52,017 nucleotides of DNA from Rozella allomycis CSF55 (lineage: Eukaryota), in NCBI GenBank assembly GCA_000442015.1, contig KE561021.1, positions 1 through 52,017 on the forward strand. Reading direction: 5' to 3'. Of this stretch, positions 18,801 to 52,017 are shown in pieces (position 1 is the stretch's first letter; each line of letters opens with the position of its first letter). Both the position numbers and the translations under genes were made by a program. A model generated the notes under the pieces. It worked only from the letters and a program-made list of their open reading frames with translations. It did no database searches and was not told the DNA's origin.

Positions 18801-19057
18801 TGAATCCATATTATTTCATTACGAATAACATTCGTTTAAAATATAGTAATTTAGTACCATGATAATGTGTTTGACTGAGATCAAAACAATCGCATAAAAT
18901 CAAAGTTTATTTGTGAATTTCTGCATTACAATACATACATACTAAAAAGTATATAGCATGAATCACTTAATGTTGGTTTCTCCAAGTTGCAAGACAGTGG
19001 CTTGGAACAGTTCAAAAAATNAGTTGCAGGACAGTGGCTTGGAACAGTTCAAAAAAT

Positions 19058-25662: not shown

Positions 25663-26404
25663 ATGAAAGTAGCGATTATAATATTATTTTTCCTTTCTTT
25701 TATACTTTCTGCTCCCCTAGAGTTTTATGAAAAGCAATGGGAAACGAATTTATTTAAGTTCTGTAACACATATGCTATACCCAAAAGTAGATAATATTGC
25801 CGATGATGCAAAATGGATAAAGTGGAAAAATGACTTTAATAACATGGAAAAAGCCTTGGAAAACAATGGAATCTGTTCATTGTATGAAGATAAATGTTTA
25901 GAGTTAATGGATAATGTGGAATTGTATAGAAAAGCATTTCAGAATGTTCTTATGAAAGTCATAGAGACGCGTTTAATTAAATCGAATAGACATAAACTTT
26001 GGTATTCTAGTAAGATTTTTCTTTTTGATGAAAGAAGCGATTGAAAAATTGAATGATAAGAGTGCACCAGAAGATTTGTGCACCACTCGCGCTTCTTACA
26101 ATAAACTCATGAAAAGTATGTCAAAACCATTAAATTTACTCGCTGAAGCATTGAAGACAGTTGGTCATTTTATGACCGAGATCGAAGAATCCACATTGAA
26201 GATCCAACATGATTTGAGTGTAGCGATTGAAAATCAAGAAAAAGAATCAAATGAAGATGATAAAAGCACATTGAAAGACTTGGAAGATAAATGGAATTTG
26301 ATGATTGAATATCAATTGCAGATTTCGGATTACATCGAATTAATTCATAGCGCCGAATTTATTTTAAGAGATGTTGCACGTCGCCAAGATTATGAAGAAA
26401 ATAA
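25663..26404 (+). CDS. Secreted helical family member 4, 5' part (split by scaffold joins)
   Basis: Signal peptide MKVAIIILFFLSFILSAP, two phase-1 introns and KWIKWKNDF. Ends at N26405 in ELIHSAEFILRDVARRQDYEEN, which recurs after N28608. Confidence 0.75.
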
Positions 26405-26405
26405 N

Positions 26406-28458
26406 GAGTCAATCCAGTGGTAACGATCAAATTAAACAACGCAATATTATCCTCCTTGAGACTAAGGATTTCATTCTTAAATATATACCAGTTCAAGTAA
26501 TATTTTCTTAAATTATATGATCGAGAGCAACGACATTGGCCAGCTAGTAATCGGCTCATTGCGTTTAAGGTTGTATTTGCGTTCTCTGGCTTTTTAGCTT
26601 CATTAAATATAATAGAAGCAGATATATCAAAAGAAAAACATTGAGATATTAAATGTTTAGTGCCAAGATAGTTTGCCAGAGGTGGATGAAGAATGGAAGG
26701 ATCTTTGTGAGCACATCTTTGCAGAGCTTCGTAATTCTCAGAGGAAAAAATATATAAAAATACTACTCCATTCTCAACATAGTAACAACCTGATAGCATT
26801 CTTCTTGATAACTCTACATTTCTAGTTTGCACCACGAGGCGCTCTAAACCTTCCAGGATCTTCTTGTCCTTTAGTGAAATGAAAAAATCTAATTCACGGA
26901 GACTTGGGTTTATTTGGTTTTCAATCATGAAATCGATTGCCAAGGCGTAATATTTTTGCTCCCAAAGAATATCTAAAATAGCGGTTAAATCGATTTGAGG
27001 GTTATAATTATAGCTATTTCTGGAAATCCCGATAGTGTATTCATTAAACTTTTTCCAATCTTCAACACTGGGAAATTTTGACACAAAAATTGAACTTTTC
27101 CATTTCAGAAAATTATGAATTGAAACGATGACATTCAAAACACCCTGATCAAACTTCATCTCGGTTGGAATATTAATCGCCTTTTTATTAATAAAAAATT
27201 TAATTGAATTTTTTCTCTCAAGTGAAAACTCAAAGTGTTTTGCAAGGGTCAACGCAAAGTCATACTTTTCGTCCCTCAATGCCAACTCAAGTTCATATTT
27301 GGCACTTTGGTAAACTAATGGTTCGTATTTATGGTTGTCTGTAGAATCAAAAACTTCTCTTATTGCTTTGATCCAATTCATCCCTTGATTCACTGGAAAC
27401 CTCTTAATGGCTTTTAAAACATCTTTCTTTCCCAGATAATGAAACGATCGATCGCAAAGAAAATTTAAAAGTTCAGAATCTTTCTCTTTAAATGCATTTT
27501 CAAGTAACAGTTTTAAACAAATAGATCCACATTGTACAATCTGAGATAAGATCTTGGGTTCTCCAAGTTTAACAACAGGAATAGCCTCTTTTCTCTTGAT
27601 AAACAATTCTTTCAAAGCCAAATGCATATTTTGGTGTGTCGCTAGAACATCGAACCAGTAAACAACTCTAGATTTGTCGACTGAAGAAAACACTCCAGAG
27701 CTTGCCAAACGAGCAAAGAAATCTGTATGATTTATTTTACAATCAGCAGCGAGATCCCATTTGTTCATTATTTTCACCACCAATTCAAATATATTCTTCT
27801 TCAAGGCTTCCATTAAAAATTCAACATCTTTTAAAGGAGTTCCAAATGGTTTAAAGTTGTTTATCATCTCTATTTTATAGTCATTGTATCCATTAACATC
27901 AAATATCATCGCTTCAACTACCAATCTTTTTCCTGTCGTTAATGCGTAATTGTATACATTCGTAACGTAGTATTTTGCATCTCTCAGTAAATACTTTAGC
28001 ACATATATCAATTGCTTTTCTATAGCGTCAATCAACACCTCTTCAAATCCTAGCCCTTTCGGGCTAATTACATGTTGGAAAAAATTGTCGCACATGACTT
28101 TGCTAGTTTCCAAATCGCCAAATTCATAGTCTACGAAAGGATCTGTTGGAATAATCTTTCTTGACTTGGAAAGTGCTTCGTTGCAAATGTCCAGGGGATC
28201 TACATTGTACTTGTTGAAATAATCATAATATTCAGTTTCATGACCCGATTTTCCATATTTTATGATAGACTCAAAAAGCCTAATAATATCAGCACTACTT
28301 TTTCTTTTGAAAGCATATTCCACCATCTCACGGTCAGATAACAATGTTTCTAGCGTTGAATACAGAAGCTTGCTGTCAGGCGTATATTGAGTATTAGTGC
28401 AAAGAATAATATTGAGTGTAAAAACACAAAACAGCACCAGGCGTGTTACGATCCACAT
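26406..28458 (-). CDS. Intronless secreted protein of unknown function (>680 aa, 3' end cut by N)
   Basis: Long ORF with hydrophobic N-terminus MWIVTRLVLFCVFTLNIILC. No recognised domain. The apparent stop lies across an N join. Confidence 0.75.
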
Positions 28459-28544: not shown

Positions 28545-28607
28545 GGGCTCATAGCTCAGTTGGTAGAGCGCACGCTTTGCATGTGTGAGGTCCCGTGTTC
28601 AAACCCC
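28545..28607 (+). tRNA. tRNA-Ala(TGC), 3' end truncated by N (possibly a pseudogene)
   Basis: GGGCTCA-TA-GCTC AGTTGGTA GAGC-G-CACGC TTTGCAT GTGTG-AGGTC-CCGTG TTCAAAC CC.. The T-stem appears to contain a mismatch. Confidence 0.75.
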
Positions 28608-28608
28608 N

Positions 28609-29660
28609 GTTGAATTAATTCAAAGTGCTGAATTTATTTTAAGAGATGTTGCACGTCGCCAAGATTATGAAGAAAATAATATTGATTTTATTAACGAAAT
28701 ATACATCGCTATGACGCGGATTATAAAGTTTTTCGAATTTTGGAATTCCCCAATTAATGAAACTGAATCCAATGAAATCATCAAAAATGACATTTTCATT
28801 AAAAATTATGTATATTTTAGTAATAGATTTTTCTGTTTACAATAAAGGTCAAATTCAACATGCTAAGAATGTTAATAACTGGACACGAAGATTCGATAAT
28901 GTTGAAGATTCATTGGCACAAATACAAATAGAAAATATCGATTATAGAGAATTATTTCAAGCTTATAGAAACTTCAGGGGCGTTCAGATTAATAATTTTA
29001 GAAAATCTTTCAATGATGAATCTGATAAAATCTCAAACACAATCTCTGCAGGTAACTGGATATACTTTATAACATGTAGCCCTCTATGATTATATTAATT
29101 TAAAAGAAAATAATATGGTTGATTATTTCAACATTGATTTCTCCAACCTAACAATCTCTCTTAATGAAATCTGTAAAAAATTGGAGAGTTTGCTTGATTC
29201 TTTAGCAACCATGATGACTTACAATAAGGTTGCTTATGGAAAAGATTTGAAAAATAGACTTGAAGAACTAAACGAAGCCAACATCAAAGCTAAAATGGAA
29301 TATAAAGACGATGGCAAAAAGAAGTCAAAGTTTAAAAATATTTCCAAGTTTATCGACAAATTAAAAAACAAGAAGAAAAAACCAATCGATATTACAAAGT
29401 CAATAGATGAACAAATTGTTCAAATTGAAATAAATGATTTGACTGCCAAAATAGAATCCACTAACAAAGGCTTTTATCATATAGAACAATTTCTCAAAGA
29501 CTTAATGGGTTTGTTAAATGATGTGGTCTTGAGCTTTAAGGATGCTTTACAGCATGGTAACAACATTGCCAATCTTAACGCTGACGATAAAGCCCTTCTT
29601 CTCGCCTGTGTTAAGAAGAATGTCTTGGTTCTGAAATACTTTATAAACTCAATAAACTAA
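28609..29660 (+). CDS. Secreted helical family member 4, 3' part (end of domain 1 plus domain 2)
   Basis: Overlaps the end of the 25663 gene in sequence. Two more phase-1 introns, NNWTRRFDNV, a Lys-rich segment and C-terminal LLACVKKNVLVLKYFINSIN. Confidence 0.75.
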
Positions 29661-30899: not shown

Positions 30900-32604
30900 A
30901 TGTGGATCCCTGCAATTTGTGTTTTCATATGTTTTGTTGTTTCAAGCCCCGTGCAAGAGACCCAAAAGGAAATTTTTGATTTCGATAACTTTCTTGGACA
31001 GTGCAACAGTATTTCTGCAAGTAACTAGCTGTCTTTTTATGCATCAGATCTTGCCGACCATCACAAGTGGAACCAGTGGAGATCAAATCTTTGTCCTCTA
31101 CCAATGGTTATAAGTTCAACCATAAAGCTTCCACTTAGAGATGCTGATATTGTCTCGGAACACGTTGCCGGACTTATCAACATGATCGAACAGGACTTGG
31201 TGCCAGTTGTAGATGAGAACATCACTAAAAACTTACAGGAATGGAGACTTGGTAACTAATTTTCAAGTCGATAAATAGCTGCTGCAAAGTTGAGAAGCGA
31301 AAGGGACGCTGTCAAGCAGACTCAGATTTTCGCAGAGACAATTAAAAGTTTGAAAGAACACCTGTCTCCAGTTCTTGAAAAGCTCGAATATATCTCCAAC
31401 CAAAGACAAGAGACTAACAAAGTCATGGAGAGATTTGAAAGAGACATGCACGCCAAGTACATTGATGATGCTAAAAAGGCAACCGCTCCAAAGACCCGTT
31501 TTGACATTGAAAGTTTGTTTCTTCAGCCTACTCTTGACGAAAGTATGATTTATTCAATGTGTTGATAAGATGATGAACGTAGAGTAAGCAAATTGCTGAG
31601 CTATACAGAAACTGATGTCGAAGATAATGAAAACCACTTTTTAAGTGAAATTCACAAAGAAGATGATGAAAACCTATTTGTAAGTGAAAGACACAAAAAG
31701 AATACACTCTTTTTGCGTGATTTAAATGAAAGAACTTTTATACTCTACGAGATTACTGATGAGGCATCTGTTATTTTTGCTGAATTGTGTAAAACCGTAA
31801 TTGAATTCGATAACAATCAACAACGTGTTGCTTTCCTTGATAGGGTTCATCAATTGACTGCCGATGTTCAAAAGTTTGCGTATTTTGCAAGTCAGCCGCA
31901 ACTCATGCCGGGAAGAGATGATTTGTATTTGCGAGGTACAGAGTTTGGTAAAATTTATAATTTTTGCGACATAGAAAAGCTTGAGGATCCACTAGTCATG
32001 GAAGAATGGCGTTTAAAAGTGAAGAAGATTGAAAGATTTGTGAAAAGACTCGACGATGAATCTTCTATTATAGACTTCAACTCTTTCACTGCTTATAAGG
32101 AGAACATGAGAATTATTATCAGGGAGCTTTATGAAGATTTTGAATTCGGTAATTAAATTAACCATTCTTGTAATTCCAGATAAAGTATCTATCAACAAAT
32201 TAAAATTAAATCTTCGTGTCTTTAGAAAAATAAACTTTAGAACAAAGAGTTGCAAAATAGCGGACCATTTAAAAGACATTGCTTCAACCACCTTTAATAT
32301 GAAATGGAATTCACGGCTAAAAGATCGTTATTTGGAAATGCGATACAATGAAAGTAAATTTGGAAAGTTAAAAAGAAAATTGTTGCGTGGAACTCAAAAA
32401 GAAGAAGAATCTTTGGATGACATTAAACGATACATCAAAGAGTATGCAGATCTTATTATTACTGTTTTCAATAAGGCTGGAAATCAGCATGGTAAACCTG
32501 TTGGAGATGAGATTGAGGTGAATTTCTTGCAAAGACATCTTGATCAATTGAAAAGTGCTGAAAGAATTACAAAGATTTTCAAAGACCTGTTATTTCCGCA
32601 ATAA
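30900..32604 (+). CDS. Secreted helical family member 6 (two tandem domains)
   Basis: Signal peptide MWIPAICVFICFVVSSP. Motifs KWNQWR, DLVPVVDENI..WRL, LSPVLEKL and VAFLDRVHQLTADVQKF. Ends LKSAERITKIFKDL. Several phase-1 introns. Closest relative is the 20977 gene. Confidence 0.8.
31620..31697 (+). repeat. 39-bp coding tandem duplication
   Basis: EDNENHFLSEIHK / EDDENLFVSERHK. Confidence 0.85.
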
Positions 32605-32680
32605 AAATACTTGATCGTTATTTTTTACTTGTTGTGCTTAAATTTTTTATCTTACATTTTAACTACATTTCGTGAAGAAA

Positions 32681-32708
32681 CACGTGTACAAAGTACTCTA
32701 CCAGCCAC
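32681..32708 (+). promoter_or_regulatory. CACGTG + CAGCCAC upstream of ATG 32721
   Basis: Recurrent motif pair. Confidence 0.5.
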
Positions 32709-32720
32709 CAATATTAAGCA

Positions 32721-33805
32721 ATGTTTTTCATACTTTTCCAGTTTCTCCTTTTACAAATCATTTGTGCACCAAAAAGAGAGCGTAGTATTAACAATGGAAT
32801 CATATCTTCAATATTTCCAGGCTATGGTAAGATTTCCAGTGTATTGTCACAGAAAACGTATTAACGCCACAAAGAATGTTGGTTCAAAAAGAATCTCTGA
32901 AACAAGTGCAGAGTGATCTAAACTTTAAGTTGATTAGAGGACGTGTTTCTAACATAGTGATGGTTGCACGTGTGATGCATATGGAGATTAGACTGAAGCA
33001 ACTGTTAGAAAAGATAGATGGGTTATGGAGTATGGGAAGCGACAAGCTGACTATCAGTGTGAATAATCTTGAGAATAGTAAGTGTTTAATCGGTGTGATA
33101 TTAGTTGTGGACGATATGAAAAATCATTACTATTATGGAGAGATATCTGCAAAAAATATGCAGAATACTTTTAACGAGCTTTTTTTAATGATGAGGGAGC
33201 ATTTGAATGATTTGTTTAATGAGATTGTAGTGATTAGGGCGAATGCGAGAAAATTGAAGACGAATATGGTTGATGTTGTAGAGTATTTGGAGAAGAGTGT
33301 GTCGAGGAATATGGAGAAGAAGAGGATTGTGGTTAAAAAGGAAAAGAGGAGGAGTGTTGTAGTGAATAAGGAGAAAAAGAGTTTGAAGAGTCGAATGACT
33401 GTTATGAGTTTAATGAATAAAGTTTTTAGGAAAAAGAAGAGAGAGAACAACAGAGAATTTTTGGAAGAAAATAACGAGTTGACAATAGATGAAAAACGAG
33501 AGTTGGAATCGGAAGAAAGACGAGAGTTGGAATCGGATGAAAATCGAGAAGAAATTGACGGTTCCAATAAGAGCAAAAATGAGACTATAGACAATGAAGT
33601 CTTAAAAGAAATAGAAGCAATTAAAACAGGAATTGAAACTTTAAAGGAATTTGTGTGGTATCTTGGCTATATAATTAAAGTGTTAATCAATGTGATAGAT
33701 GATTGGATATATTTTGTCGATGTAGAAAGAGGTGCATGGGCGATGGACGTGATGGCTAGCATGAAATTTATGTTACAAAATATATTCACTTCAATTCAAC
33801 TATAA
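32721..33805 (+). CDS. Secreted helical family member 7 (tandem paralog of the 34245 gene)
   Basis: Signal peptide MFFILFQFLLLQIICAP. A 26-nt intron plus an in-frame 27-nt intron, both phase 1. C-terminal MDVMASMKFMLQNIFTSIQL. Confidence 0.8.
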
Positions 33806-34187
33806 AGCGATTCATAGAATTACGAAAATAACAAAATCTATTAAGAATTTGAAAAGAAAGCAATAATAAATATGTTATTACAACTCGAACCCTCCACTTT
33901 AATAATTGGCTATTTTGTTTTCGATTTGCCTAATCTATTCAATGATGAATTTACATCAGAAGATTACCATAAAGAATAAATTCCATGGCAGACCAAGACC
34001 CCTGAAACTCTGTGTACAGTACTGGATTGTGCGCGCGCCTCTGCTGTAGCGCCTTGAGCAATATACTCCTTTCAGATTGTCATGCCTGTTGTTTCCAATA
34101 AGACTTTTGATATTCATATTACGAATAAAGGCAATAAAAATACTTGACTTGATCTTATAAACATTTAAACTAGTTTTCCTCAATAAA

Positions 34188-34229
34188 CACGTGTGGCACT
34201 CGCCTTGACAATGTGCTCCACCAAGCCAC
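34188..34229 (+). promoter_or_regulatory. CACGTG + AAGCCAC upstream of ATG 34245
   Basis: Recurrent motif pair. Confidence 0.5.
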
Positions 34230-34244
34230 CCAAAAAGATAGAAA

Positions 34245-35256
34245 ATGTTTTTCATACTTTTCGCTTTCCTCCTTTTGCAAATCCTGTGTACTCCCAACAG
34301 CGAGCATACCATAAACAACGCTTTAATATCATCAATATTTACAAACTATGGTAAGATATCTGGTGTGAATTTACAGAAAATGTGTTATCGCCACAGCGAA
34401 TGTTGGTTCAAAAAGAGTCTCTGAAAAATTTGCAGAGTGATCTGAATTTCAAGTCGATTAGAGGCCATGTGTCGAGTATAGTGATGGTATCGCGTGTTGT
34501 GCAAACGGAGATTGGATTGAAGCAGCTGTTGGATAAGATGGATGCGATGTGGAGTATAGGAAGTTCCAAGCTGACGATAAGTGTGCTTAATCTTGAGAAT
34601 AGTAAATGGTTGATGAGTGTGAGACACTAGTTGCGGATGCTATGAAAAATCATTATTATTATGGAGATGTTTCTGTCAAGGAAGTGGATGACACGTTTAT
34701 AGAGTTTTTTGGGATGACGAGGGACCATTTGAATGATCTGGCGAGTGAGATTGTAGAGGTTAGGACGAGTGCGAGTAGATTGAAGAAGAATATGGTTAGT
34801 GTTGTGGAGGATTTGGAGAAGAGTTTGTCTGGGAATAAGGAGAAGAGTAGTTTTAAGGGGCTTGTGGATAAAATGAGTGCAATGAGGTTGATGGATAGAT
34901 GTTTTAAAAAGAAGCATGAGAGTAGAGATGTGGCTAGAGAGTTTATGGAAAATAATGGTGGGCTGACAATGCGCGAATATAACGAGTTGGCTTTAGATGA
35001 AAATAGTGGTTCTAAAAACAAGAAGAATAAGAGTATAAATAATGAAGGGGTTTTGAAAGAAATAGAAGCGATGAAAACAGGGATTCAAACTATAAATGAA
35101 TTTGCCGAGTATCTTGGTTATATAGTTAGAGTGTTGACTAATGTGATTGATGACTGGATAGATTTTTTTAATCTAGAGGATGTTGAGTTGATGATTGATG
35201 TGATGGCTAGTATGAAATTTATGCTACAAAAGATATTCACATCACTTCAACTATAA
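34245..35256 (+). CDS. Secreted helical family member 8 (tandem paralog of the 32721 gene)
   Basis: Signal peptide MFFILFAFLLLQILCTP, the same two intron positions, and near-colinear protein (MKNHYYYG, VIDDWI, DVMASMKFMLQ). Confidence 0.82.
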
Positions 35257-35546
35257 AGGAGATAGAAAAATAAAAGAACTATAAAAAACAAATAGAAAAT
35301 AATAAATAAATAATTCAATATAAAACTTTAAACTAAGTACTTTAAACTATTTCACTTTAAACTATAAACTTGTCATTTTCTTTAATTGTTTATTTTGTTT
35401 TCAATTTGCCNTTCACTTCAACTATAGAGTCATAGAATAACTATAAAAAACAAATAGAAAATAATAAATAAATAATCAACATAAAACTTTAAACTAAATA
35501 CTTAAAAATTATTACTAAAACTTATACTATAAACTTGTCATTTTCT

Positions 35547-38500
35547 TTAATTGTTTATTTTGTTTTCAATTTGCCTAAACCTGTTCATCAACGGCTGATT
35601 ATTAATAGAAGACAGAGCAACAATAAACTTTGACAGATCAACAGCTGAATTTTCTTGGAGATGATTTTCGAGCAAGAATAGAATTTCCTGTAATAAAAAG
35701 AGCAAACCATTTGGCGTGTTCCATGGATGTGATTTGTTAACAAAGAGAGAATTTAGTTCGTTGAATAGAATTTGGAATGGAATTGGAATTTTCAAGAGAC
35801 AATTAACGCACCAGCCGGATTGGTTTAGAGAGAATGAAAATTTGAGAATGAGATTTAAGAGATCGGATAGAGGGAATACTATTGAAGGATAGAATTGTTT
35901 ACCCAAAGAAACCAACTTTGATTCTAGTGATATTAGAGAATTAGTAGTAATAGAAGTATTAGAAGTATTAGAAGGGTTATAACCATTAGAACCATTACTA
36001 TTAGACATATTACAACTAGAAATGATGTCGTTGTACATTGAAATGATTAAAGACTTGTCAGAATAGTTTGAACATTTAAGAATAGAAAAACAAGAGAAAT
36101 AGAGATTTAAAGGTTTAGCATAATAATTGAATAGATGAGATAAATCTAATAGTTTGAATTTTAGAATTTCATTTGGGACTAGATTCTGTTGATCCATTTC
36201 ATTTAATAGATTTAACTGAATCAAAGCAACATCCAATTGATCTTGAATCAAATCAATTGAAATAATTTTTATTAAAGAACAACTTTTAGCATTAGCTAAT
36301 GAAAGTGTTAAATATTCAATTCTCTTTTCTATTGGAATTTGAATTCTAAATTAAAACATTAAATAGAAATTACTCTTCGTTTGTTCCAATTGAATAGCAA
36401 GTTAAAGAAGCTTTATCAAATATTTCATTGTGAACGTAATACTTCCACAACAAATCATAATCTTCAGCTATTTTGGGATTGTTCATTCTATTCTTTAATA
36501 CTTCTTCAACAAACAAACTTTTCATTTGAATAATCAAATTGAATTTCTTTACAAAAGCAAAATAGTCAATCAATCTCTCATGAAACAATTTATCATTTGA
36601 TTTCATAGCAATCTGCAAGCAAGTCATCAGTAGAGAGTCAAGTGATTCACTAGTTAAACTATGCAGTTGACCCTCTACACTACTCAAAGCACTACTTTCA
36701 CCTCTAACCCCATTATCACCTCTAACTCCTTTGTCAACTTTGTCACCTTTATCACATTCAAAATCACCTTCAAAGAGGGAAATACAAATTTCATAAATTT
36801 CATTCCTCTCAATTTGATTTAATTCAACATTCTCCAAACTCAACAAGATCAATTTAATCGCATATTGATGACATTTCAATCTCTTGTATTCTTCACAAAT
36901 TAATTTCAATCTATTAATAGAAATAGACTTAGCCACTTTAACAAACAATTTAAATGAATCTATAATAGAATTCTTATTTAAAGATTCAGAAGCCTTGTAC
37001 ATTAAATAATCATCTGTTGTGAAATACAATGAACAATTCTCTCTCAATGTTTCTAATAATGATTCAATGTTTATTTCTTGTTTAATATGTTTATTTATTA
37101 AATTTCCAATCAATTCTTTCATCAAATCTATTTTTCCAATTAAATCTAAAATCAAAATCTTTTCATTAAAATTCTTCATCAATTCTTTCAAATTAAAATC
37201 TAATAAAATTATTATCAAATTTATTATTTCTATAAAATAATTTACAAAACTTTTAATCTCTTTCATCTTTATTAATTCTCTCTTTATTGCTTCTTCAATC
37301 TCTGCATCTATAAATTGAATTGATTTCATATTCTCCATTTCATATCTCTTCACTATCTCAGACTCTTCAATAAAGTTTTTAATCTGAATCATATTCTGTT
37401 TAATCACTTGCAACAATACAAAATTATCTTCTCTTTCATTCAACAAACTCAAATCTTTCAATGTTTTATCATTCAATGGTTTTATTATTCTCCCAACCAA
37501 CAAATTCAATCCATTAAACAATCCTGAATAAACTATAGAAGTATTATAAGGATTTAAAGGGTTTGAAATAGTATTAAAAGAAGGGTTAAACGTTGTAGAA
37601 GGGTTGAAAGTAGACGTAGACGGGTTAAACGTTGTAGAAGTATTTGTTGCACTAGAAGTCTCATTCTTTACAAGGGTTGGAATGCCAGAATATTTATACA
37701 AACAATACAAACTCGCTTGCTTTATATTACTCTCTAATTGACTCAAAATCATTTCTTGATTAAATGACTGGAATGGACTAGACGATAATATCAAACTAGT
37801 ACACGCTATTTCATCCCTCTCGAAACTCTCATAAAATATTTTTAATTGTTCTGTCTCTTTCCCATTACTTTCCCTCAATATCTTTATCATCAAATCAACT
37901 GGTCTATTCTTTTCTATTATTTGAATCCCTTTCAATGTGATGTGAATTTATTTACCTAATTCAAAACTTTTACTTTTTAATTACCTGAATTGGACATTAC
38001 TAAAAATCTTCTCCTTTTGCTTCTAAATTGATTCAAAAATTCATTATTTCTATTCTCCTCCCTCTTCTCTTTTCTATTCTTCAACTCACAAACACTCCAC
38101 GTCTTTCCCTGCAAATTATTAATCATAGACTTTTCAATTCCCACACTCCCATTCTCCTTCACTACACCTCCCTTGCCTCTACTCAACAAATTGCTATTCG
38201 GGCAAACCATCCACATCAAATCTTCACTCTCAATTCCACTCCCACTAGCTGCTAGAAAACACCCCTCTGAATAGAAACTCAAATGATACGAATTCCTCAA
38301 CACCGGCGATACCATCAAATTATTCATCCTAAACTCATTGCCTATCCTCACATGAATCATCTTCACTTGCATATTATTATCAACCCCAAAATACATCCTT
38401 ATCCCATTGCTCAAACAAACAAAAAAATTAACCCTCTCACTCTCACTTCTCTTAATCCCATGCACCCCGATCACCTGCAAATTCTCTCCTTCAAACACAC

Positions 38501-39447
38501 TCCCATTCCTTCCTACCATCATCTTCCCCTGGTAAACCATAAAACTAAAATCTATCGTCTCCAAATGCTTAAAATCTCTTCCATCCAATCCCATATAATA
38601 CACACTCACATTAGACTTTTCACTCAACGTATACACCATATTCCTCGTATCATCAACAACCACACTCATCAACGCATCTATACTCCCAAACGGATTCAAT
38701 ATCGACGCATACTGGCTAATAATCCCTCTACTCTTCACCACCTTCGAACACCGTCTCTTAAACCATCCCTCTTTACTCTATCTACACAAACCAACCCCCT
38801 TACCTGGTAATTCAACTCGTACAAATTTCCATCACTCCCACTCATAAACACCCTCCCCTCCTCACTCGCTCCAATACTCAATATCCTCACATCATCCGTA
38901 GGCACACTCAGCCCAGTATTATAAAACACCACATCCCCACCACTCACTGCTATCCCCAACACACTCACCTCGACTGCTGTAGCAACAACCATTATATACT
39001 CAATCTGCTTCACAAACACACCCTTCTTTGGTCGCGCCAGCCCTACACATCCAATAATCTGGTCAAACTCATCATAACTCACAAACGACCTATATCACCC
39101 ACACAAATACATTACCCATCCTCATAGTTCCAGATAAACAACCTATTATCTATAGTCAACCACGCTCGATTCAACTCTTCAAACAACCCCATAAAACACT
39201 TGCTCTCAATCGTATCATACAACTGGAATAAACTATCAGGCAACGGTATAAATTTTTTCAACGTATAAATTCCCTGCTCATTCACATACTCGCTACTACT
39301 AGGACCTGTCACACTTGGCATCGTATTTTTACTCGAAAATAGATCCCATAAATCAGGATACTCAATCTCCCGCTGCCGGCAGTAGCTCAGAATATTGTTC
39401 ACCGTTTGCTCATTCGTTGCTGAAATGTTTCTTGCTTCTCCTAACAT
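35547..39447 (-). CDS. NUP170: Nucleoporin Nup170/Nup155, multi-exon
   Basis: MGLFEELNRAWLTIDNRLFIWNYEDG, VGLARPKKGVF, GRVFMSGSDGNLYELNYQ, DDTRNMVYTLS, DLLWKYY and LFNYYAKP. Confidence 0.93.
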
Positions 39448-39555
39448 TCCCAAATTTACAAACCAGGGTCTACAAAACAAGATAGTTCATGAAACAGTTA
39501 CATAAGAAATATAATGATAAAATTGATTTCTACATAATTTTATAGTATATCAAGT

Positions 39556-42500
39556 TTATTTTAATCCCTTAATCACAAAAGCAACAGGCTTATCCTTGAT
39601 CTCAGCAGCCGGCAAATAAGCACCCAAACACGACACAACCAACGAAAACAATATCAAAACTACAAACAACGGCACATTCATATAAAACGCAAACGGCATT
39701 TCAGTAAACAAATTAAACTGCAGCGTCAATGCAATCGCAGTCACACATCCAATAACAAAGCCCTGGATAATACATGAAATAACTATAGTCACAGCCTCAT
39801 AAATATACAACTTCATCACCTGCCATCCATACAATCAGCCAAATTGATTATCATTACTTGTAAACCAATCGCTCGCAAAACACCAAATTCCCACACATTC
39901 TCACGAATATTCGCTGTAAACGACAGCCAAAGCACAAAAAAACAAAATATCATGCCGATAAACGAGACTAGTATGGAAAAGGATTAAATTTTACCAACGT
40001 AAAAGAACATCATTATTAAATCACTGGCAGTCTTTGTTGCTGCTATATCGGCTTTCAGGTTTACCACATTGAATGCATCGCTGTTGACTATCCCGTTAAT
40101 GTCATTCACAAGCCCTTCAATTTGGAAATCTGACACAGATTGCTTGACCTTTATAAACAAACGCGAATATGATATTTTTGTAGGCTTTTCGGGCATCATC
40201 AATCGGTCAGAGTACTCTAAAATCTTTTTATACATGTCCAGAGAAATAAATAACGGTGTTCTGTTTCTCACCAAACGTGAAATTGAGGGAAACCCAGATA
40301 ACTTTTTCAACAAGATTATTGGCAACGAGGGGATCTCATGGGTTATGTATTGACGATTCATGTCGCGAAAATAAAATATTAGGCGAACCATTGAATCTAC
40401 ACCAAAGTAATAGTTTTCATATAATGAATTTGAAATGGCTATTGGAACACCTGATAAATATGCCTTTGATGTGTTAGAAGGTAATCTGTTTTCATCATAA
40501 GGCGCGTATTGGCCAGAATATACGAGAGATGGCGGCTCTGTAAGTTCCAAGCTGAGATTGGTGTTGAGTGATGGCAAGAAATTTATCTTTCCAGAGCCAG
40601 TTGTTTGGAAATTTAGTTCAGGGCGTACCTTTTCAACCATGTAATACGAATTGAAACTTACATCCAAATAGTTTTCTTCCAAGGCCATGACTGAAACGGT
40701 CACTTCATTAAAGTATAGATTATCAATGATGGTAAGATCATCAAGGTTCTTTAAAGAGTTTAATGGGACTGTGGCAAAACTATAGTCTTCAACAATACAC
40801 CTTGAAGAATTGTTATATTTGACTAGAACAGTATTTAAATAGGATCTCAAAGCAGTATCAGGCAGGGGATTATTCATGGTCCCTCCAGTAACAACAATAT
40901 CTGCCCCAGCAAACCAAGATTGGTTATCTGATAGGGAATTCGCTTGCATAGTAAACATGGTAGCAGCAAATAAGACATATGCCAAACAGATGACAAACAT
41001 AAGAGATGTTTTTCTATTCCTAGGCCGATGGCTCTGTAAATTTTTCAAGACAACATCCTTGAGGATTCTATCGGATCCCCAATATAAAATAACTGAGAGT
41101 ATGCTTCTCTCTAAAAATGGTTGTATTGATGAAACCATTAAAATTTGGCCAATGACAAGACACAATAGAATTATGGTAAGAACTCTGAAAAACATGGACA
41201 GTAGGTTAAAAATAAATGACAGAGGTACAACATAGTATACCAGAATACCTATAACCACAAGAAACAAAGCGAATAATGTTTGTATTATAGAAACCCCAAT
41301 GTCTTGTAGGCGTTTAATGGATACAGTTGTGTCAAATACTACATTATGATATATGTCGAGAGCATCTCTCAGCGTTTTTGTTAAAGCACGCCTGACTGGA
41401 ATAATTGAGCCAACAAAAGGGAGAATTATACCCAAAGAAACACCAAGTATTAATGCGCCAAAAGTCAAGTATGGTCTTATCTCTGTAAATGTCATGTTGG
41501 ATAAAACATAACTTAGTGGTACATAAATTACATAGCAAATGTATATTCCTGTCAGAATGGCCGGCAGGGAAAAATAGAAAGATTGAATGGTTAAAAGACG
41601 AAGAAGATTATTTTTGTTCAGACCAAGAGTCCGTAACATTCCAAACTCAAAGGTCTTTTCTTGAATGTCGGCCAGCAATAGAGAATATATTAGTATTACT
41701 GCTAGCATTGACAAAACCACTACAACTGCGAATAGCACCTATTTAAATTATGCAAGGATCATACTTCATCTAAAAGAATGCTAATGAAGCTAGAGGTTTG
41801 GAGCGCGGTGTTTAAAGGAAGTGAAAATGTGGCATCAAAATCATCCCCAAGGCTTCCCACTATAGAGTTTGTTAATAAAATAAAGTCCTTTTTTCTCTCA
41901 GTAGTAGATTTCATATATGCAGATAGCCTGTCTTTGAATATAACGCATACAGACATTGCAAATTGCTACGAATTTGTTTATAAGCAGCCTTTTACGTCGA
42001 TTTCTAAGTTCTTAATTTCTGTATATAAGTTATTTAATATAGGTTCTAACAAGTTATTGCTTGAAAGAGATGATATAAACGAAATCATTATTTTCTTAAG
42101 AACAATTTTCTCAAACACAGCATAATTGCCTAGAGCAGTAGGAACCTTACTGTATGTTCCATCTAATGAACCGACCACTATCACAATTTTGTACGTTATT
42201 TACCAGTGAATGTGGAATTTACAATTAGTAGCCAAGGGTTTTCATCAATAGTTTGCAACAAATTTTGAATCAAAACCTTTGAATTAACAGTAACATTGAA
42301 TCTAGCTTAACTATACAATGAAATGGATAATTACATTGCGTGGAATTATCGATACCGATAATTCTTGTCAAGTTGGGAAACAAGCGTGTCGCATCAATCA
42401 AGTCACTAGCATCAATTGTTCGAGTGATATTTTGTTCAGGGATTATTGAATTCAAAAAGGAATCAAGATTATTTCTGGAATTGTTGGTAGAATTTGATAA

Positions 42501-43378: not shown

Positions 43379-43394
43379 GGGGATGTAGCTCAGA

Positions 43395-43427
<33 letters not shown>

Positions 43428-43451
43428 GGGGATCGATACCCCGCATCTCCA
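43379..43451 (+). tRNA. tRNA-Ala(AGC)
   Basis: Full cloverleaf GGGGATG..CATCTCC-A with G3:U70. Anticodon arm CGCGC TTAGCAT GCGCG. T-loop ATCGATA (A54, typical of eukaryotic tRNA-Ala). Followed by TTTT. Confidence 0.97.
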
Positions 43452-46548: not shown

Positions 46549-48366
46549 ATGCTATTAAAACGATACTTTTCAAGTTTAGGCAGGTTTAAATTACCGGTAC
46601 CTCTTAATGAGCCATTGGTAACATTGTAGCATAACTTTTACTAGAAAACATTCTCTCCTGGTAGTCTTGAGAGAGAAAACCTAACAAGTGCGATCAAGGA
46701 ATTAAAAGCCAGTGAAAAATGTGTACCGGTGATAATTAATGGGGAAAGAATATTTTCAGGGAATATTTCTGATCAAGTTATTGGTGGAGACCATCAAAAG
46801 AGAATCTGTCAATTTCATGAGGCGGACGAAACACTTACAAGGCGTGCAATAGAGGAAGGATTGAAGGCTAAAAAACTTTGGCAAAGAATGCCTTTGGAAC
46901 ATCGAGCTTCTGTATTTTTAAAAGCGGCAGATTTATTGACCACAAAGTACAGGTATCAAATGATGGCTGCCACAATGTTGGGACAAGGGAAAAATATTTA
47001 TCAAGCTGAAATTGATTGCATTACGGAATTGGCAGATTTTTGGAGATTTAACTGTCATTTTGCTGAGAAAATTTATGAAGATCAGCCATTAAGAAACAAT
47101 GTTGGAAATTGGAATAGAGTTGAATACCGTCCACTTGATGGATTTGTCGCAGCAATTTCCCCATTTAATTTTACCGCCATTGGTGGAAATCTTTGTTCTG
47201 CGCCAGCATTGATGGGAAACTCTGTGGTTTGGAAACCTTCATCCGCTGCTGTTTACAGCAATTATCTTGTTTATAAGATTTTAGAAGAGGCTGGTTTACC
47301 ACCCGGTGTGATACAGTTCCTACCTGGCTCACCCCAACCGATTGTGAACGTAAGAAGAGAAAAACATCATTAGTTTAGGAAATGTTATCGCATAAAGCTC
47401 TATCGGGAATTCACTTTACTGGCAGCACATTTGTGTTTAGGGAGATTTGGAAACAAGTTGGAAATAGGATCGAAAGTTATTCTTCGTATCCTAGATTAGT
47501 TGGAGAAACTGGAGGGAAAAATCTTCATTTTATTCACGAAAGCGCTGATTTATTGAATGCCGCGGCAAATACAATCCGTTCAGCGTTTGAATATCAAGGT
47601 CAAAAATGTTCAGCTTGTTCACGATTGTATGTTCCAGATAGTGTTTGGCCAAAGTTTAAACAACATTTATTGACAATGCATAGTTCTATTAAAGTTGGCC
47701 CAGTGGATGGTACCGTCGTTAAATGTTTCAAAATAGATTTTACCAATTTTTGTACAAATGTTATAAATAAGCAAGCATTTGATAAGATTAAATCATATAT
47801 CGACTATGCAAGATCTTCTTCTGAGGCCAGAATAATTGCAGGTGGTGAATGTAACAAATTTAAGTTGAATCAAGTAGGCAACGATGAAAAAGGTTATTTT
47901 ATCCACCCTACGATCATTGAAACTTCTGATATTCATTTCAAAACAATGAAAGAGGAAATCTTTGGCCCCGTCCTAACAGTGTTTGTTTATCCCGCCAAGG
48001 AGTATGAAAAATATGTAAAAGACTAATTATTTTTTGAAAAGGCCGAGATAGCAGCAAATTCATCAGAATATGCATTGACTGCTGGAATGTAATTCACTTT
48101 ATATTTTGAGTAATAGATTTGCGAGTGAAAGATCAATTATACAAAACTTGGAGGAAAAAATGCTTTACGCGTCTGGAAACTTATACATAAATGACAAAAG
48201 CACCGGTGCCATTGTTGGTCAACAACCTTTTGGGGGCTCAAAGGCATCCGGAACAAACGATAAAGCAGGTGCCCTCATGAATTTACTAAGATGGACATCA
48301 GCTAGGGCCATCAAAGAAAATTTCATCCATATTTCAGACTATATTTATCCTTCAAATCTTAAATAA
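46549..48366 (+). CDS. PUT2: Mitochondrial delta-1-pyrroline-5-carboxylate dehydrogenase (ALDH4), multi-exon
   Basis: Presequence-like MLLKRYFSS, ATMLGQGKNIYQAEID, ISPFNFTAIGGN, HFTGST, GETGGKN, FEYQGQKCSACSR, EEIFGP and GQQPFGG. Confidence 0.97.
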
Positions 48367-48545
48367 AGTAGCTTGCGTCGTCCTGTTTCGTTATATCCTT
48401 TTTTCATCTTTTTTACACAAGATGTCCATTGATTAATTTTTGGAAATAATGTAACATAAATATCATCTTAATCATTTTAAAAAGCATGGAAACAAAGTTG
48501 AACACCCGTGGCGCTGTTAGAGCAATTGTAGATGGAGTGGCTTAG

Positions 48546-49859
48546 ATGCAAGTGATATCATTTTTGTATGTTCTCTTTTTTTCATGCTGTATTATAGCTT
48601 ATGATATAAGTCACCTTCCAAGATGTTTAGATTCTGATTATTATACAGTTTCCAATTTAGGAACTGGGGGACTTGGCACNACAGTGGAAAAACTGAGGCG
48701 TAAGTCTGATGGAAAATACTTTGCAAGAAAGACCTCATACGCCCACTATAGCTTTTATTACCGTGAAATACGTGCATTGGATATGCTAGCTTTTTCAAAA
48801 ATGTTTCCAAATTTAATTTGTATATATGAAGAGCCAGGTGTCTCCCAACCCGATGAAAAGAAATACAAACATTCCTTTATAATGGATTATCTTCCGGGAG
48901 AAGAGTTCCTAAAGGCTTTCGATAGCTGCAGATACAAGAATTTATCTCCAAGCGACATTGACTCTATAATTAAATGCCAGAAATTCATTCCCAGCGATTT
49001 GGAAATAAGAAGCTTTATGGAACAATCTGTCATGGCGCTCAATGATTTACAAAAAGTATCACTGGCAATTGTTGATATAAAACCGAGCAATATAATGTAT
49101 TACAAGGGAGAATTAAAGTTTTTTGATATGAATGGCTCTTCTCATTCTACCGATAAGAACTTGTATGTTGTTAGTACAAAATTTTTTGCTGCACCGGAAA
49201 CAAAAAACAGTCACATTTTCGGTATAAATGTGCCAGAAACTGACATATTCTCTTTGGGTATCATTTTTCATATGATGGTGGGATATAAATCTCTCCATAG
49301 AGGTCTTTCTGCTTCCGAAGCTTACAAGAAAATATATCCGTATTCATATGGCTATACTTTGAAGATGCTGCGTAATGATAACTGCGCGCATATTGACTCT
49401 CCACCTCTTTTCAATGATATTAAGCTTGGAACTCAAAATGGAATTGCCTTTGATCTCGCATATAAAATGCTCAATTTTCATACTTACGAGAGAATAACAT
49501 TAGATGAGATTAAGAAGCACAAGTATTTTGAAGGAACTAATTGGGACAATCTTGAAGAACGATTTGGTTCACAATCATATATGCCAAACCTTGTAGGTGT
49601 AAAATTAACCTTGGATATTAATTACCAAAATTATGACAAGAATAATTTCGATACGATCTATAGCTTTAGGGCCACAAACAATTACCAATGCGACGATAGA
49701 AGAAAACCTAGACCTCTTCCAGTTTTAGCTATAGTATACATATCTATTGCCTCTGTAGCCTGTGTTTCAGTTGCCGCTTTTATGATTTGGAAGAAAGTTA
49801 AACATGGTACTTTAAGTACCAAGATGTCCGTTGTTACAACAAGCCCAATTACTTTGTAG
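48546..49859 (+). CDS. Signal-peptide Ser/Thr kinase with C-terminal TM helix (atypical, AGC-derived)
   Basis: Signal MQVISFLYVLFFSCCIIA, LGTGGLG, FARK, REIRAL, IVDIKPSN, FFDMNG, AAPE, DIFSLG and KHKYFEGTNW. TM segment VLAIVYISIASVACVSVAAFMIW followed by KKVK. Intronless; N at 48680. Confidence 0.88.
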   Translation: MQVISFLYVLFFSCCIIAYDISHLPRCLDSDYYTVSNLGTGGLGXTVEKLRRKSDGKYFARKTSYAHYSFYYREIRALDMLAFSKMFPNLICIYEEPGVSQPDEKKYKHSFIMDYLPGEEFLKAFDSCRYKNLSPSDIDSIIKCQKFIPSDLEIRSFMEQSVMALNDLQKVSLAIVDIKPSNIMYYKGELKFFDMNGSSHSTDKNLYVVSTKFFAAPETKNSHIFGINVPETDIFSLGIIFHMMVGYKSLHRGLSASEAYKKIYPYSYGYTLKMLRNDNCAHIDSPPLFNDIKLGTQNGIAFDLAYKMLNFHTYERITLDEIKKHKYFEGTNWDNLEERFGSQSYMPNLVGVKLTLDINYQNYDKNNFDTIYSFRATNNYQCDDRRKPRPLPVLAIVYISIASVACVSVAAFMIWKKVKHGTLSTKMSVVTTSPITL

Positions 49860-50004
49860 TTTATCAACTTAATGATAACATGAATTATGCAATATTCTTA
49901 TAAACCAAATTTGTAAGTTGTAACTATTTTCATTTTTTGACATTTTTGATTGTCGCATAATTTTCTATTTTTGCTTCAATCCACGCCACCCTTGAAGCCA
50001 CCCG

Positions 50005-51192
50005 ATGAATTTTCTCTGCTTTATTTTTCTGTGTGGTGCTAGTTTGGCAGCGTGCCAGTTTTTGTATGACATGTCTGCTATTCCCCGTTGCGTGGATGGC
50101 GAGTTTGAAGTTCTTGAAAAGCTTGGTCATGGTAGTTTTGGAACAGTTGAAAAGGTTCGAAGACTATCAGATGGCAAAATATTTGCTTTAAAGTCTACGC
50201 AAAACCCTTACATGAGTCCTTTATTGCTAAAATGGTCATATTACAGTGAAATCCGTGGTCTTGATCGTTTAAAGTTTTCCAGTATGTTTCCCAAATTGAT
50301 ATGCATTTTCAATGAGCAGGATTTGACAAATATAGCTACTCTTCCAACCGCTTATAGGTTTGTTATGGAATATTTACCTGGACAGCTGCTCCAGTCGCAG
50401 TATACGAAATGCTTAGGGGAGAATATTGGTGCAAATTTTTATGATCATCTTCAAGAGTGCAAAAAGCATTTGCCAGATGAAGAAGAAATGAAATCTGTTA
50501 TAGCGCAATGTTTGCTAGCCCTTGAAGATGCCGAATTCGCTGGATTGTCATTGACTGATGTGAAACCAGAAAATATGATGTATAATCAAGGCAGAATAAC
50601 ATTTTTTGATTTGAATGGAGCTTTGCACAAGAGTGATTTATCGCTTGTAAAGTTTATGACACCGATTCGCGGACCACCAGAGGTGCTTAAGACGCCGATA
50701 AAGATTGACCATACAAAAAATGCATTATACTCTGTGGGAACTATTCTTGGATCCTACTATGGTATTCGCTCAATTAAAGTTGATAAGATGGCACATAATG
50801 ATTTCCACAATGTTATTTATCCATTGAAAGTGTTTCCTATTACAATGAATATGTTTGAGTTAGATAATAATTTGAAGGGATATGAAGATTTCAAGAAGAT
50901 GACTGGTTCTGATGTGATATCCGACTTTATATCTAGACTGGTTACATTAGAACCTGAAGGTCGCATGTCTATAAGTGAAACCAAGAAGCATCAGTATTTT
51001 GAAGGATTTGATTGGGATGCATTGATAAAGAGAATTGGTTATGTTAAACCAGTGAATGTAAAGCTTGAAGCTAAATTGTGGAAAAATGCGCCGACATTGA
51101 CTACAAAGGCAGAAGCATTAGAGTTACTTAAATCATTTGAATCAGAATCAGGAGAAAAAGTGTTGACAAAGAAGCAAGTAAGGAATGAATAA
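50005..51192 (+). CDS. Signal-peptide Ser/Thr kinase, soluble paralog (atypical, AGC-derived)
   Basis: Signal MNFLCFIFLCGASLAA, LGHGSFGTV, FALK, SEIRGL, LTDVKPEN, FFDLNG, GPPE and KHQYFEGFDW. No TM segment; intronless. Confidence 0.88.
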   Translation: MNFLCFIFLCGASLAACQFLYDMSAIPRCVDGEFEVLEKLGHGSFGTVEKVRRLSDGKIFALKSTQNPYMSPLLLKWSYYSEIRGLDRLKFSSMFPKLICIFNEQDLTNIATLPTAYRFVMEYLPGQLLQSQYTKCLGENIGANFYDHLQECKKHLPDEEEMKSVIAQCLLALEDAEFAGLSLTDVKPENMMYNQGRITFFDLNGALHKSDLSLVKFMTPIRGPPEVLKTPIKIDHTKNALYSVGTILGSYYGIRSIKVDKMAHNDFHNVIYPLKVFPITMNMFELDNNLKGYEDFKKMTGSDVISDFISRLVTLEPEGRMSISETKKHQYFEGFDWDALIKRIGYVKPVNVKLEAKLWKNAPTLTTKAEALELLKSFESESGEKVLTKKQVRNE

Positions 51193-51299
51193 TCAATAAA
51201 CTGCAATTGCTTATAAGTAATTATCCAAGTTCATTAGTTTAAATGTTCAGATTACTATTTTAAATTATTCCTTTAAACGAGTGATTGACATTCGATGCT

Positions 51300-52017
51300 T
51301 TAAAACTTTTCGTAATTTCCCATTTCGATTTCTATAAAGAAAAGATTTAAAGTGTTACTCTTTAGCGCAATAAATGATCCAAGCGTGTAAATATTTCCGT
51401 TCAAGATGACTTTTTTTCCAAGCGTCAATGAAAACCTTTTAATGAATGAATGTAAAGGTACCTTTTTTCTAATTTGATCGAAATTTGTATTTTGGAAGTT
51501 TGTGATCCAGATGATGAGAAATCTTTTGAGTAGAGATTGATTGTTGAAATGAATAGCCTTGTTATGAAATTCTAGATTCAGATCTCTCGAAAGGGATTTA
51601 TTTCTAATTAGTGAATGTGTGTTATTTCTATTAACAGGTGCATTGACAATTGATTCACTACTAGTTGTAAGTAATTTACTATTTCCATTAGAACCACTTC
51701 CAATCAATGATTTACTATTGCCATTAGATCGTTTAATGATATCATTAACACTAACTTCATTTATGTTAGATGATCTATTTTTAAAGTTGACGCTTTTAAC
51801 ATTATCAATTCTTTTAAGATTCCATATTTTCCACATNCGCTTTTAACATTATCAATTCTTTTAAGATTCCATCTTTTCCACATTGATTGAATTAAAAACT
51901 TTTCATGTAATTGCAGGGGCTTTGAACAAAATTTCTTAGATAAACAAAATTTGAATTTGAATAATCTTTTAGAAATATTTTTCGATTTTTTCAAAGCCAA
52001 ATATTTTCTAAATTTAA
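51300..52017 (-). CDS. 3' part of a gene extending beyond the window, possibly with Sfi1-like W-containing repeats
   Basis: KFLIQSMWKRW and SLLKRFLIIW. Disrupted by a duplicated N join at 51837. Confidence 0.35.

Follow-up and report, generated by a model that had tools for sequence, protein, structure and literature searches.

The ROP kinases of Toxoplasma and the FIKK kinases of Plasmodium are proteins of the eukaryotic protein kinase (ePK) fold that carry N-terminal export signals, are lineage-specific and fast-evolving, and comprise active members as well as pseudokinases. In animals, Fam20C/Four-jointed and VLK/PKDCC are lumenal or extracellular kinases with disulfides. For Microsporidia, Reinke et al. 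(2017; PMC5423893) describe kinase families, enriched in signal peptides and transmembrane segments, among the predicted host-exposed proteins. Here we analyze two adjacent genes, hereafter referred to as K1 and K2, of Rozella allomycis CSF55, which lives as an intracellular parasite in the fungus Allomyces, forms an unwalled plasmodium and phagocytoses host cytoplasm. The genes lie on contig KE561021.1 (assembly GCA_000442015.1), of which positions 1 to 52,017 of the forward strand (hereafter the window) were studied. Both encode, behind an uncharged hydrophobic N-terminus of 15–16 residues, an entire ePK domain in which no residue needed for ATP binding or phosphotransfer is missing. The reading that we hold, with moderate confidence, is that K1 and K2 are constitutive non-RD kinases (the Arg of the His-Arg-Asp, or HRD, motif being replaced) that travel through the secretory pathway to the surface (K1) and the exterior (K2) of the wall-less parasite.

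Kinase domains and family of K1 and K2

Both genes are on the forward strand. K1 (48546–49859) is an uninterrupted open reading frame (ORF) of 437 aa ending in TAG, with a predicted signal peptide, kinase domain, low-confidence stalk, membrane span and C-terminal tail, and K2 (50005–51192) is an uninterrupted ORF of 395 aa ending in TAA, with a predicted signal peptide, kinase domain and helical C-terminal tail and no membrane span. The 145 bp from the K1 stop to the K2 ATG (49860–50004, same strand) must contain the 3' end of K1 together with the promoter and 5' untranslated region (UTR) of K2. The two proteins share 33% identity over 345 aa (E 4e-64).

The Pfam profile Pkinase (PF00069; curated gathering cut-off 31.7 bits) matches K1 with 72 bits (E 7e-20) over residues 34–328 (48645–49529; profile positions 3–263 of 263) and K2 with 73 bits (E 3.4e-20) over residues 34–332 (50104–51000; profile positions 1–263 of 263). 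It is the only kinase family matched by either protein in the Pfam scan, besides a weak APH match for K2. AlphaFold2 (AF2) models built on a 100-row alignment have a confident kinase core for both K1 (mean predicted local distance difference test, pLDDT, 73.6; predicted template modeling score, pTM, 0.73) and K2 (79.2 and 0.80), and in these models the two proteins adopt the bilobal kinase fold. A Foldseek search of the PDB with the K2 model gives at least 500 matches at E ≤0.001, with protein kinases only among the matches listed and the AGC kinase AEK1 of Trypanosoma cruzi as the best (E 3.6e-14). It is clear that K1 and K2 are real tandem, divergent kinases of the ePK fold.

To describe the catalytic core we use a motif alignment (A3) of K1, K2, five relatives and 93 other kinases, the latter picked solely by length (250–600 aa) from the 150 best matches of a K1/K2 profile and therefore a biased control. 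K1 and K2 share (in K2 numbering) the Gly-loop residues G41, G43 and G46, the beta3 Lys K63, the alphaC Glu E82, the catalytic D185-x-K187-x-x-N190 and the Mg-binding D202. The HRD site reads I-V-D in K1 (49068–49076) and L-T-D in K2 (50551–50559), while the DFG site reads D-M-N (49125–49133) and D-L-N (50608–50616), respectively. The HRD His column, with Ile in K1 and Leu in K2, holds His, Tyr or Phe in 93/93 controls and never Leu or Ile; the Arg column, with Val and Thr, holds Arg in 75/93. At the DFG Gly column, where both proteins have Asn, 78/93 controls have Gly and 11/93 Asn, and the alphaF Asp, kept in K1 and replaced by Ala240 in K2, is Asp in 92/93. On sequence, then, K1 and K2 are non-RD kinases. 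At the residue 11 places before the APE Glu (counted by hand), which we take to be the position of PKA Thr197, K1 has a Tyr and K2 a Val. Being non-RD, with no phospho-acceptor at the usual activation-loop position, the two would need no upstream kinase.

An earlier note on this DNA, made from the letters and their ORFs, had anticipated most of this: its coordinates for the tandem ORFs are exact, the kinase domain that it read in each lies far above the Pfam cut-off, the alignment contains in both proteins the beta3 Lys, alphaC Glu, D-x-K-x-x-N and Mg-binding Asp that it listed as kept, as well as the changes of HRD to IVD/LTD and of DFG to DMN/DLN, and its description of the pair as non-RD agrees with the Val/Thr at the Arg column and the missing Ser/Thr at the Thr197-equivalent position.

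An exhaustive HMMER search with a K1+K2 profile over 1.84 billion representatives gives 3965 matches at E ≤0.001, 36 at ≤1e-10 and only 2 at ≤1e-30, both of them the window's own proteins. The next related matches are Rozella paralogs (E 1e-16), and the best non-Rozella single-domain matches reach about 68 bits or less. The relatives, all from R. allomycis, are P0158 (EPZ32095, 505 aa; BLASTP 31.6% identity over 282 aa, E 3e-28), P0015 (RKP16654, a 120-aa fragment; BLASTP E 1e-21), P0007 (EPZ33024, 449 aa; BLASTP E 2e-18), P0006 (EPZ32332, 295 aa; BLASTP E 1e-17) and P0008 (EPZ36891, 271 aa). The 90%-identity cluster mates of the public models of K1 and K2, RKP18297.1 and RKP18298.1, are also from R. 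allomycis CSF55. When 276 fetched proteins were scanned for five signature motifs (IRALD-like, P-x-L-x-C, Y-P-Y/L, P-x-C and K-H-x-[YF]-F), three or more were present in 10, all of them the listed Rozella proteins or allelic copies. By these sequence criteria, K1 and K2 belong to a small kinase family that is specific to R. allomycis among the representatives searched. The earlier suggestion of a distinct family is borne out in this respect, and orthology with conventional intracellular kinases, which would have spoken against it, was not found in the exhaustive search.

Other searches gave similar pictures. A word-index protein search with K2 alone returned only its own public model among 5090 candidates, and one with the N-terminal 115 residues of P0007 returned only P0007 itself among 89. 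With a 7-sequence family profile, the word-index search gave 217 matches among 8000 scored, mostly generic kinases, the best named eukaryotic ones being plant AGC-NDR kinases (approximately 1e-25 to 1e-27). A possible outside relative from the family-profile search (P0159, 162 bits) was rejected, as it is GC-rich, has two tandem kinase domains and carries no family signature. The ESM Atlas yielded generic kinase clusters only.

In a quick maximum-likelihood tree of 98 rows, with the fragments P0008 and P0015 left out, K1 and K2 are sisters (Shimodaira-Hasegawa-like approximate likelihood-ratio test, SH-aLRT, 98), with P0158 as the row closest to them. On this tree the five family rows are accounted for by two changes, and none of 500 label shuffles does as well. 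When the five members are constrained to group together, the resulting tree exceeds the free quick one by 70.6 log-likelihood units (approximately unbiased test, p-AU 0.946), which means that a single origin of the family is not rejected and that the tree implying it is the better one found. The catalytic motifs vary within the family: P0158 has S-R-D and D-F-N, P0006 has W-L-D and an intact DFG, P0007 has H-K-D-L-S-E-A-N with no catalytic-loop Lys and a Pfam match left only in the N-lobe, and in P0008 an Asn replaces the catalytic Asp.

With respect to ancestry, AGC kinases make up all of the best 60 PDB sequence matches of the family profile, among them ROCK2 (E 1.8e-34), yeast PKA (1.7e-33), mammalian PKA, PKC-theta, MRCK and Cbk1. 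With K2 alone, AGC kinases account for most of the best rows, and the best single N-lobe match is the membrane-associated kinase PKMYT1. The AGC tail Pkinase_C (PF00433) gives no match at E ≤5 in the six family proteins scanned, and the N-F-D and Y-S-F strings in the K1 tail resemble the AGC hydrophobic motif by eye only. The combination of RD with an activation-loop Thr (a PDK1-type target) is likewise absent from K1 (Val, Tyr) and K2 (Thr, Val). Since both the tail and this combination fail, we do not file K1 and K2 as AGC members; derivation of the family's kinase domain from AGC-type kinases nevertheless fits the sequences. The AGC ancestry proposed in the earlier note is thus compatible with the kinase domain, and the K-H-x-Y-F-E-G-x-x-W string that it cited is present in both proteins, whereas the AGC tail domain is undetectable.

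Hydrophobic N-termini, cysteines and the K1 span

K1 begins with MQ followed by VISFLYVLFFSCCIIA (residues 1–18, 48546–48599) and K2 with MN followed by FLCFIFLCGASLAAC (residues 1–17, 50005–50055), both on the forward strand and both resembling signal peptides, as had been noticed before. An uncharged, strongly hydrophobic start of this kind is found wherever the N-terminus of a family member is complete, namely in K1, K2 and P0007, with maximal 12-residue Kyte-Doolittle means of 2.68, 2.49 and 2.95, respectively; a mean of at least 2.3 is reached by only 3 of 137 other Met-starting kinases from the same search. In all three proteins the hydrophobic start is followed by small residues and then by Y-D-x-S-x-x-P-x-C, so that the third paralog extends the original observation. 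According to the −3/−1 rule for signal-peptide cleavage, the K1 site would likely lie after I-I-A. The charge on the N side of the segment is +1, and that on the C side is −2 (K1), −1 (K2) or 0 (P0007); under the positive-inside rule, a C flank more negative than the N flank favors translocation of the kinase domain. Taken at the level of sequence features, routing of K1 and K2 into the secretory pathway is likely.

The choice of start codon matters here, as the earlier note had recognized in naming downstream starts among the results that would overturn its proposal. If the N-terminus were untranslated (part of the 5' UTR) or a mere tether, K1 and K2 could be ordinary intracellular kinases, K1 being tail-anchored with a cytosolic domain and K2 cytosolic from M23. 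The public models do omit the hydrophobic segments: that of K1 (352 aa) starts at M86, after an N at 48680, and that of K2 at M23, a start that would leave its whole kinase domain intact. The small ATGs upstream of K1 make the first AUG of its mRNA uncertain, and the PKMYT1 match of the K2 N-lobe would also suit an intracellular enzyme. However, the short K1 model lacks the Gly loop, the beta3 Lys and the alphaC Glu, and neither K1 nor P0007 has a Met between M1 and the beta3 Lys, so that a downstream start would delete the Gly loop and the ATP-binding Lys and leave shorter products with no ATP site. In K2, Y21-D22 just upstream of M23 is conserved with K1 and P0007, which argues that the region in front of M23 is part of the protein. 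The hydrophobic start has moreover stayed open and uncharged in 3/3 complete paralogs despite approximately 30% overall identity, and the public model of P0007 (EPZ33024) already contains it. The K1 ATG stands immediately after an in-frame TAG, and no ATG precedes that of K2 in its frame, where a stop lies three codons upstream. The proposal that downstream starts apply thus finds some support in the public models and meets, in K1, the loss of three catalytic elements.

The cysteines are a second family feature. Four Cys columns are shared by the two proteins (C29, C100, C136 and C152 of K2, corresponding to C27, C92, C128 and C144 of K1), and the alignment confirms those reported earlier. The Cys of P-x-C, before beta1, is present in 4/4 family rows that cover the column, and the beta4 Cys of L-I-C in 6/6 covering rows of alignment A2, where the seventh row, P0008, begins with a Cys at or beside the column; in A3 the beta4 column has Pro in P0006 and a gap in P0008. 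Among the controls, Cys is rare at the P-x-C and beta4 columns (3/86 and 4/91 non-gap rows). The other pair lies in an insert after the hinge, where only K1 and K2 have Cys. In the AF2 models, DSSP assigns a beta-bridge at residues 28–29 of K2 and residue 26 of K1. The distribution of the Cys fits disulfides formed in the endoplasmic reticulum (ER), and family-specific conserved Cys would be unusual for cytosolic kinases.

An addition to the earlier description is a C-terminal hydrophobic span in K1 (residues 391–415, 49716–49790, forward strand), consisting of the 25 residues LPVLAIVYISIASVACVSVAAFMIW between the flanks DDRRKPRP and KKVKH, with basic residues on either side, and followed by a tail of 22 aa. 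A low-confidence AF2 helix (401–419) overlaps the span, approximately 50 residues of low-confidence model separate it from the kinase domain, and it is kept in the allele of a second assembly. K1 is accordingly predicted, from its sequence, to be a type I, outward-facing kinase. K2 has neither a membrane span nor a retention signal, and no host-targeting motif was seen in K1 or K2.

Genomic setting and assembly quality

The window is AT-rich eukaryotic DNA with approximately 33% G+C throughout, the K1/K2 region included, and a tblastn search of it with the seven family proteins finds K1 and K2 as the sole copies. The neighboring P5C-dehydrogenase, Vps16 and Nup155-like genes fall into several ORF fragments, with GT..AG gaps of 27–29 nt when read by eye, while the kinase ORFs are uninterrupted, so the earlier description of intronless genes in an intron-dense region is accurate. 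The gene just upstream of K1 encodes a P5C-dehydrogenase-type aldehyde dehydrogenase (46645–48365, forward strand) with very short GT..AG introns of approximately 27–29 nt (e.g., 47350–47378), one of which appears to be in frame and stop-free and is read through in a plain ORF scan. We considered an unspliced in-frame intron as the source of the post-hinge insert of K1 and K2 and rejected it, because the insert contains conserved residues, including both Cys, that are common to the two proteins.

Upstream of K1 lie a 19-codon ORF, METKLNTRGAVRAIVDGVA (48486–48545), which is in frame with K1 and whose TAG directly abuts the K1 ATG, and a small out-of-frame ATG at 48532. The hexamer CACCCG occurs within 45 nt 5' of both kinase ATGs (48503–48508 and 49999–50004); as an upstream element it is not significant, since the window has 5 occurrences where 3.8 are expected, a count reached in 28 of 100 shuffles. 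One metatranscriptome with the same species label has 0 contigs on 48300–51400.

A single N at 48680 falls inside the Gly-rich loop of K1, where the codon ACN encodes Thr whatever the base and the flanks read 'ac N ac', and at this N the K1 loop is one residue longer than that of K2. Five of the nine tandem arrays found by Tandem Repeats Finder (TRF) in the window are exact two-copy duplications across a single N: 1417–1585 (N at 1499), 7874–8143 (8007), 8770–8841 (8806), 18985–19058 (19021) and 51791–51883 (51837). Since these duplications straddle the Ns, the 21 single Ns of the window look like unmerged contig joins, not ambiguous bases, and the short duplications around them are assembly artefacts. 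With Ns marking contig joins elsewhere in the window, the extra Gly-loop codon of K1 may itself be an artefact of an assembly join.

Two assemblies under the same strain label differ in the family proteins: K1 is 96.0% identical between them (P0003/P0153; 14/352 residues differ), K2 97.3% (P0004/P0154; 10/373), P0008/P0157 97.4% (7/271) and P0006/P0156 99.7% (1/295). Alleles, recent copies or errors of single-cell assembly may account for these differences.

Elsewhere in the window, a 699-aa ORF on the reverse strand (26362–28458) has a signal-peptide-like start, MWIVTRLVLFCVFTLNIILC, and may, judging by that start, encode another secretory protein; it has no Pfam match at E ≤0.001 and a weak one to DUF4116 (0.019). 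A large reverse-strand ORF (39987–41738) contains an FtsX-like permease C-terminal domain (E 1.2e-11), which is more familiar from bacteria. Two tRNA-Ala genes lie on the forward strand at 28546–28617 and 43379–43451, with anticodons TGC and AGC, respectively, the first containing an N at 28608. The GC skew is −0.57 over 38001–40000, in the 5' part of the Nup155-like gene region, and +0.26 to +0.28 at 32001–36000.

Interpretation and comparison with known systems

The route that we propose for K1 and K2 would begin with cleavage of the hydrophobic segment as a signal peptide and entry of the kinase domain into the ER lumen. Disulfides could form there between the Cys of P-x-C and that of beta4 L-I-C and, possibly, between the pair in the post-hinge insert specific to K1 and K2. 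K2 would be released from the wall-less plasmodium, while the C-terminal span of K1 would hold it in the parasite plasma membrane in type I orientation, its kinase domain pointing outward on a stalk of approximately 50 residues. Major et al. (2019; PMC6699826) report that NTT transporters of Rozella can import host ATP, and such import implies that ATP is available at the outer face of the parasite. The two kinases could then use host-derived ATP at the host-parasite interface to phosphorylate host proteins or proteins of the interface itself, and their sequences suggest activity independent of an upstream kinase, which would suit an enzyme working outside its own cell.

Several observations weigh against this proposal. 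The replacement of the HRD His and DFG Gly in both proteins, together with the loss of the alphaF Asp in K2, means that activity may be weak or lost, and the paralogs P0007 and P0008 look like pseudokinases from their catalytic residues. The signal-peptide call rests on hydropathy, flank charge and a −3/−1 rule applied by hand, and hydrophobic residues can arise by chance from T-rich DNA. Of the seven family sequences, four are cut short at the N-terminus and bear on export neither way, the public models begin downstream of the hydrophobic segments, and small upstream ATGs precede K1. Mature K2 would have an odd number of Cys if cleaved after C17. Finally, the parasite resides in a compartment that lies inside the cytoplasm of the host, so that a secreted protein does not automatically reach the host cytosol.

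A more far-reaching version of the proposal, which we put forward tentatively and regard as doubtful, is that K1 is an ecto-kinase on the naked plasma membrane and K2 its soluble secreted sister, both constitutively active, using host ATP and phosphorylating host interface proteins. The pair would then represent a host-manipulating system of AGC descent that arose at the base of the fungal tree, independently of ROP/FIKK and of the microsporidian kinases, and that was missed by secretome predictions because the public models lack the signal peptides.

Among the alternatives, export in the service of the parasite itself survives best, although we consider it unlikely. The substrates would be lumenal, secreted or surface proteins of Rozella, such as wall proteins of the zoosporangium or resting spore, or transporters at the surface, by a logic analogous to that of the metazoan Golgi and secreted kinases and not that of a host-directed effector. 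The evidence for ER entry is identical for this alternative, anchoring would keep K1 at the parasite's own membrane, and an enclosing compartment and the lack of a visible host-targeting motif also suit it. What speaks for host-directed kinases instead is that the family occurs in a single obligate intracellular parasite only, evolves fast and includes pseudokinase members, traits that mark host-exposed families in microsporidia (Reinke et al., PMC5423893). In addition, no Fam20-type or other Golgi-kinase family matches K1 or K2 at E ≤5 in the Pfam scan, which was not aimed at these families and is not a specific test for them.

It is also quite improbable, in our estimation, that K1 and K2 are exported pseudokinases that, instead of transferring phosphate, act through binding, whether as decoys, as scaffolds or as inhibitors of a host kinase pathway. 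The secreted kinase families of Toxoplasma include many pseudokinases, and the replacement of the HRD His by Leu or Ile (0/93 controls), the Asn at the DFG Gly and the missing alphaF Asp of K2 would be expected in such proteins, as would the loss of the catalytic Lys in P0007 and of the catalytic Asp in P0008. K1 and K2 themselves, however, keep every ATP- and Mg-contact and catalytic residue (Gly loop, K, E, D-x-K-x-x-N, D), and Asn at the DFG Gly column is also found among the controls, biased as these are by retrieval with the K1/K2 profile. The ordinary intracellular kinases discussed above are the least probable of the three, given the ATP site lost from any shorter K1, the conserved Y-D before M23 of K2, the hydrophobic starts and Cys shared across the family, and the lack of conventional-kinase orthologs.

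Should the proposed export of K1 and K2 hold, a kinase family with export signals found only in Rozella would supply concrete candidate effectors in the best-studied member of the lineage leading to Microsporidia, in which host manipulation is hardly understood, and it would add a third, independent example of ePK kinases exported by intracellular parasites. The membrane-anchored, outward-facing form predicted for K1 would be an unusual kinase topology, and the D-[LM]-N, non-RD core without the His offers a natural test of how far the regulatory machinery of kinases is dispensable. The public models of K1 and K2 also expose an annotation problem: as both lack the N-terminus, secretome predictions based on the proteome cannot have flagged these proteins. 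In the full-text literature (PMC Creative Commons and bioRxiv) we found no paper on secreted or signal-peptide kinases of Rozella.

The AGC kinases (ROCK, PKA, PKC, MRCK and NDR/Cbk1) have the kinase domains closest to those of the Rozella family and share with it the H-x-[YF]-F-x-x-x-x-W string after the domain. The Rozella proteins differ from them in the signal-peptide-like N-terminus, the non-RD core, the missing activation-loop phospho-acceptor, D-[LM]-N in place of DFG, the lack of a detectable Pkinase_C tail, the extra Cys and the post-hinge insert. The metazoan secretory-pathway kinases, in contrast, are atypical or highly divergent and restricted to animals, whereas K1 and K2 match PF00069.

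The microsporidian kinase families resemble that of Rozella in belonging to obligate intracellular parasites of a sister lineage and in being lineage-specific expansions with targeting signals (PMC5423893), but they have no specific sequence relationship to it. One microsporidian protein came to our attention in this context, P0040 of the fish parasite Nucleospora cyclopteri (KAL6121265.1), which combines a hydrophobic N-terminus with a canonical HRD and a long N-lobe insert. It scores like any kinase (E 1.6e-10) and lacks the Y-D-x-S-x-x-P-x-C, IRALD and L-I-C signatures; its sequence makes it a possible exported kinase, related to the Rozella family by the kinase fold alone. From these comparisons, the Rozella family looks like an invention independent of the microsporidian kinases.

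The likeness to ROP and FIKK is one of kind, in that all are export-signal ePK kinases of intracellular parasites that evolve fast and mix active members with pseudokinases. Rozella belongs to a different eukaryotic supergroup, its family has a different ancestry, and it has no rhoptries; none of the best 60 PDB matches of the family profile or of K2 is a ROP or FIKK kinase, which is a weak test limited to those 60 rows. A C-terminally anchored, outward-facing form as predicted for K1 is, to our knowledge, not the usual ROP or FIKK layout. The known kind to which K1 and K2 would belong is thus that of exported parasite ePK kinases, while the family, its AGC-like origin, its D-[LM]-N, non-RD and His-less core and the anchored outward form are, as far as we found, new.

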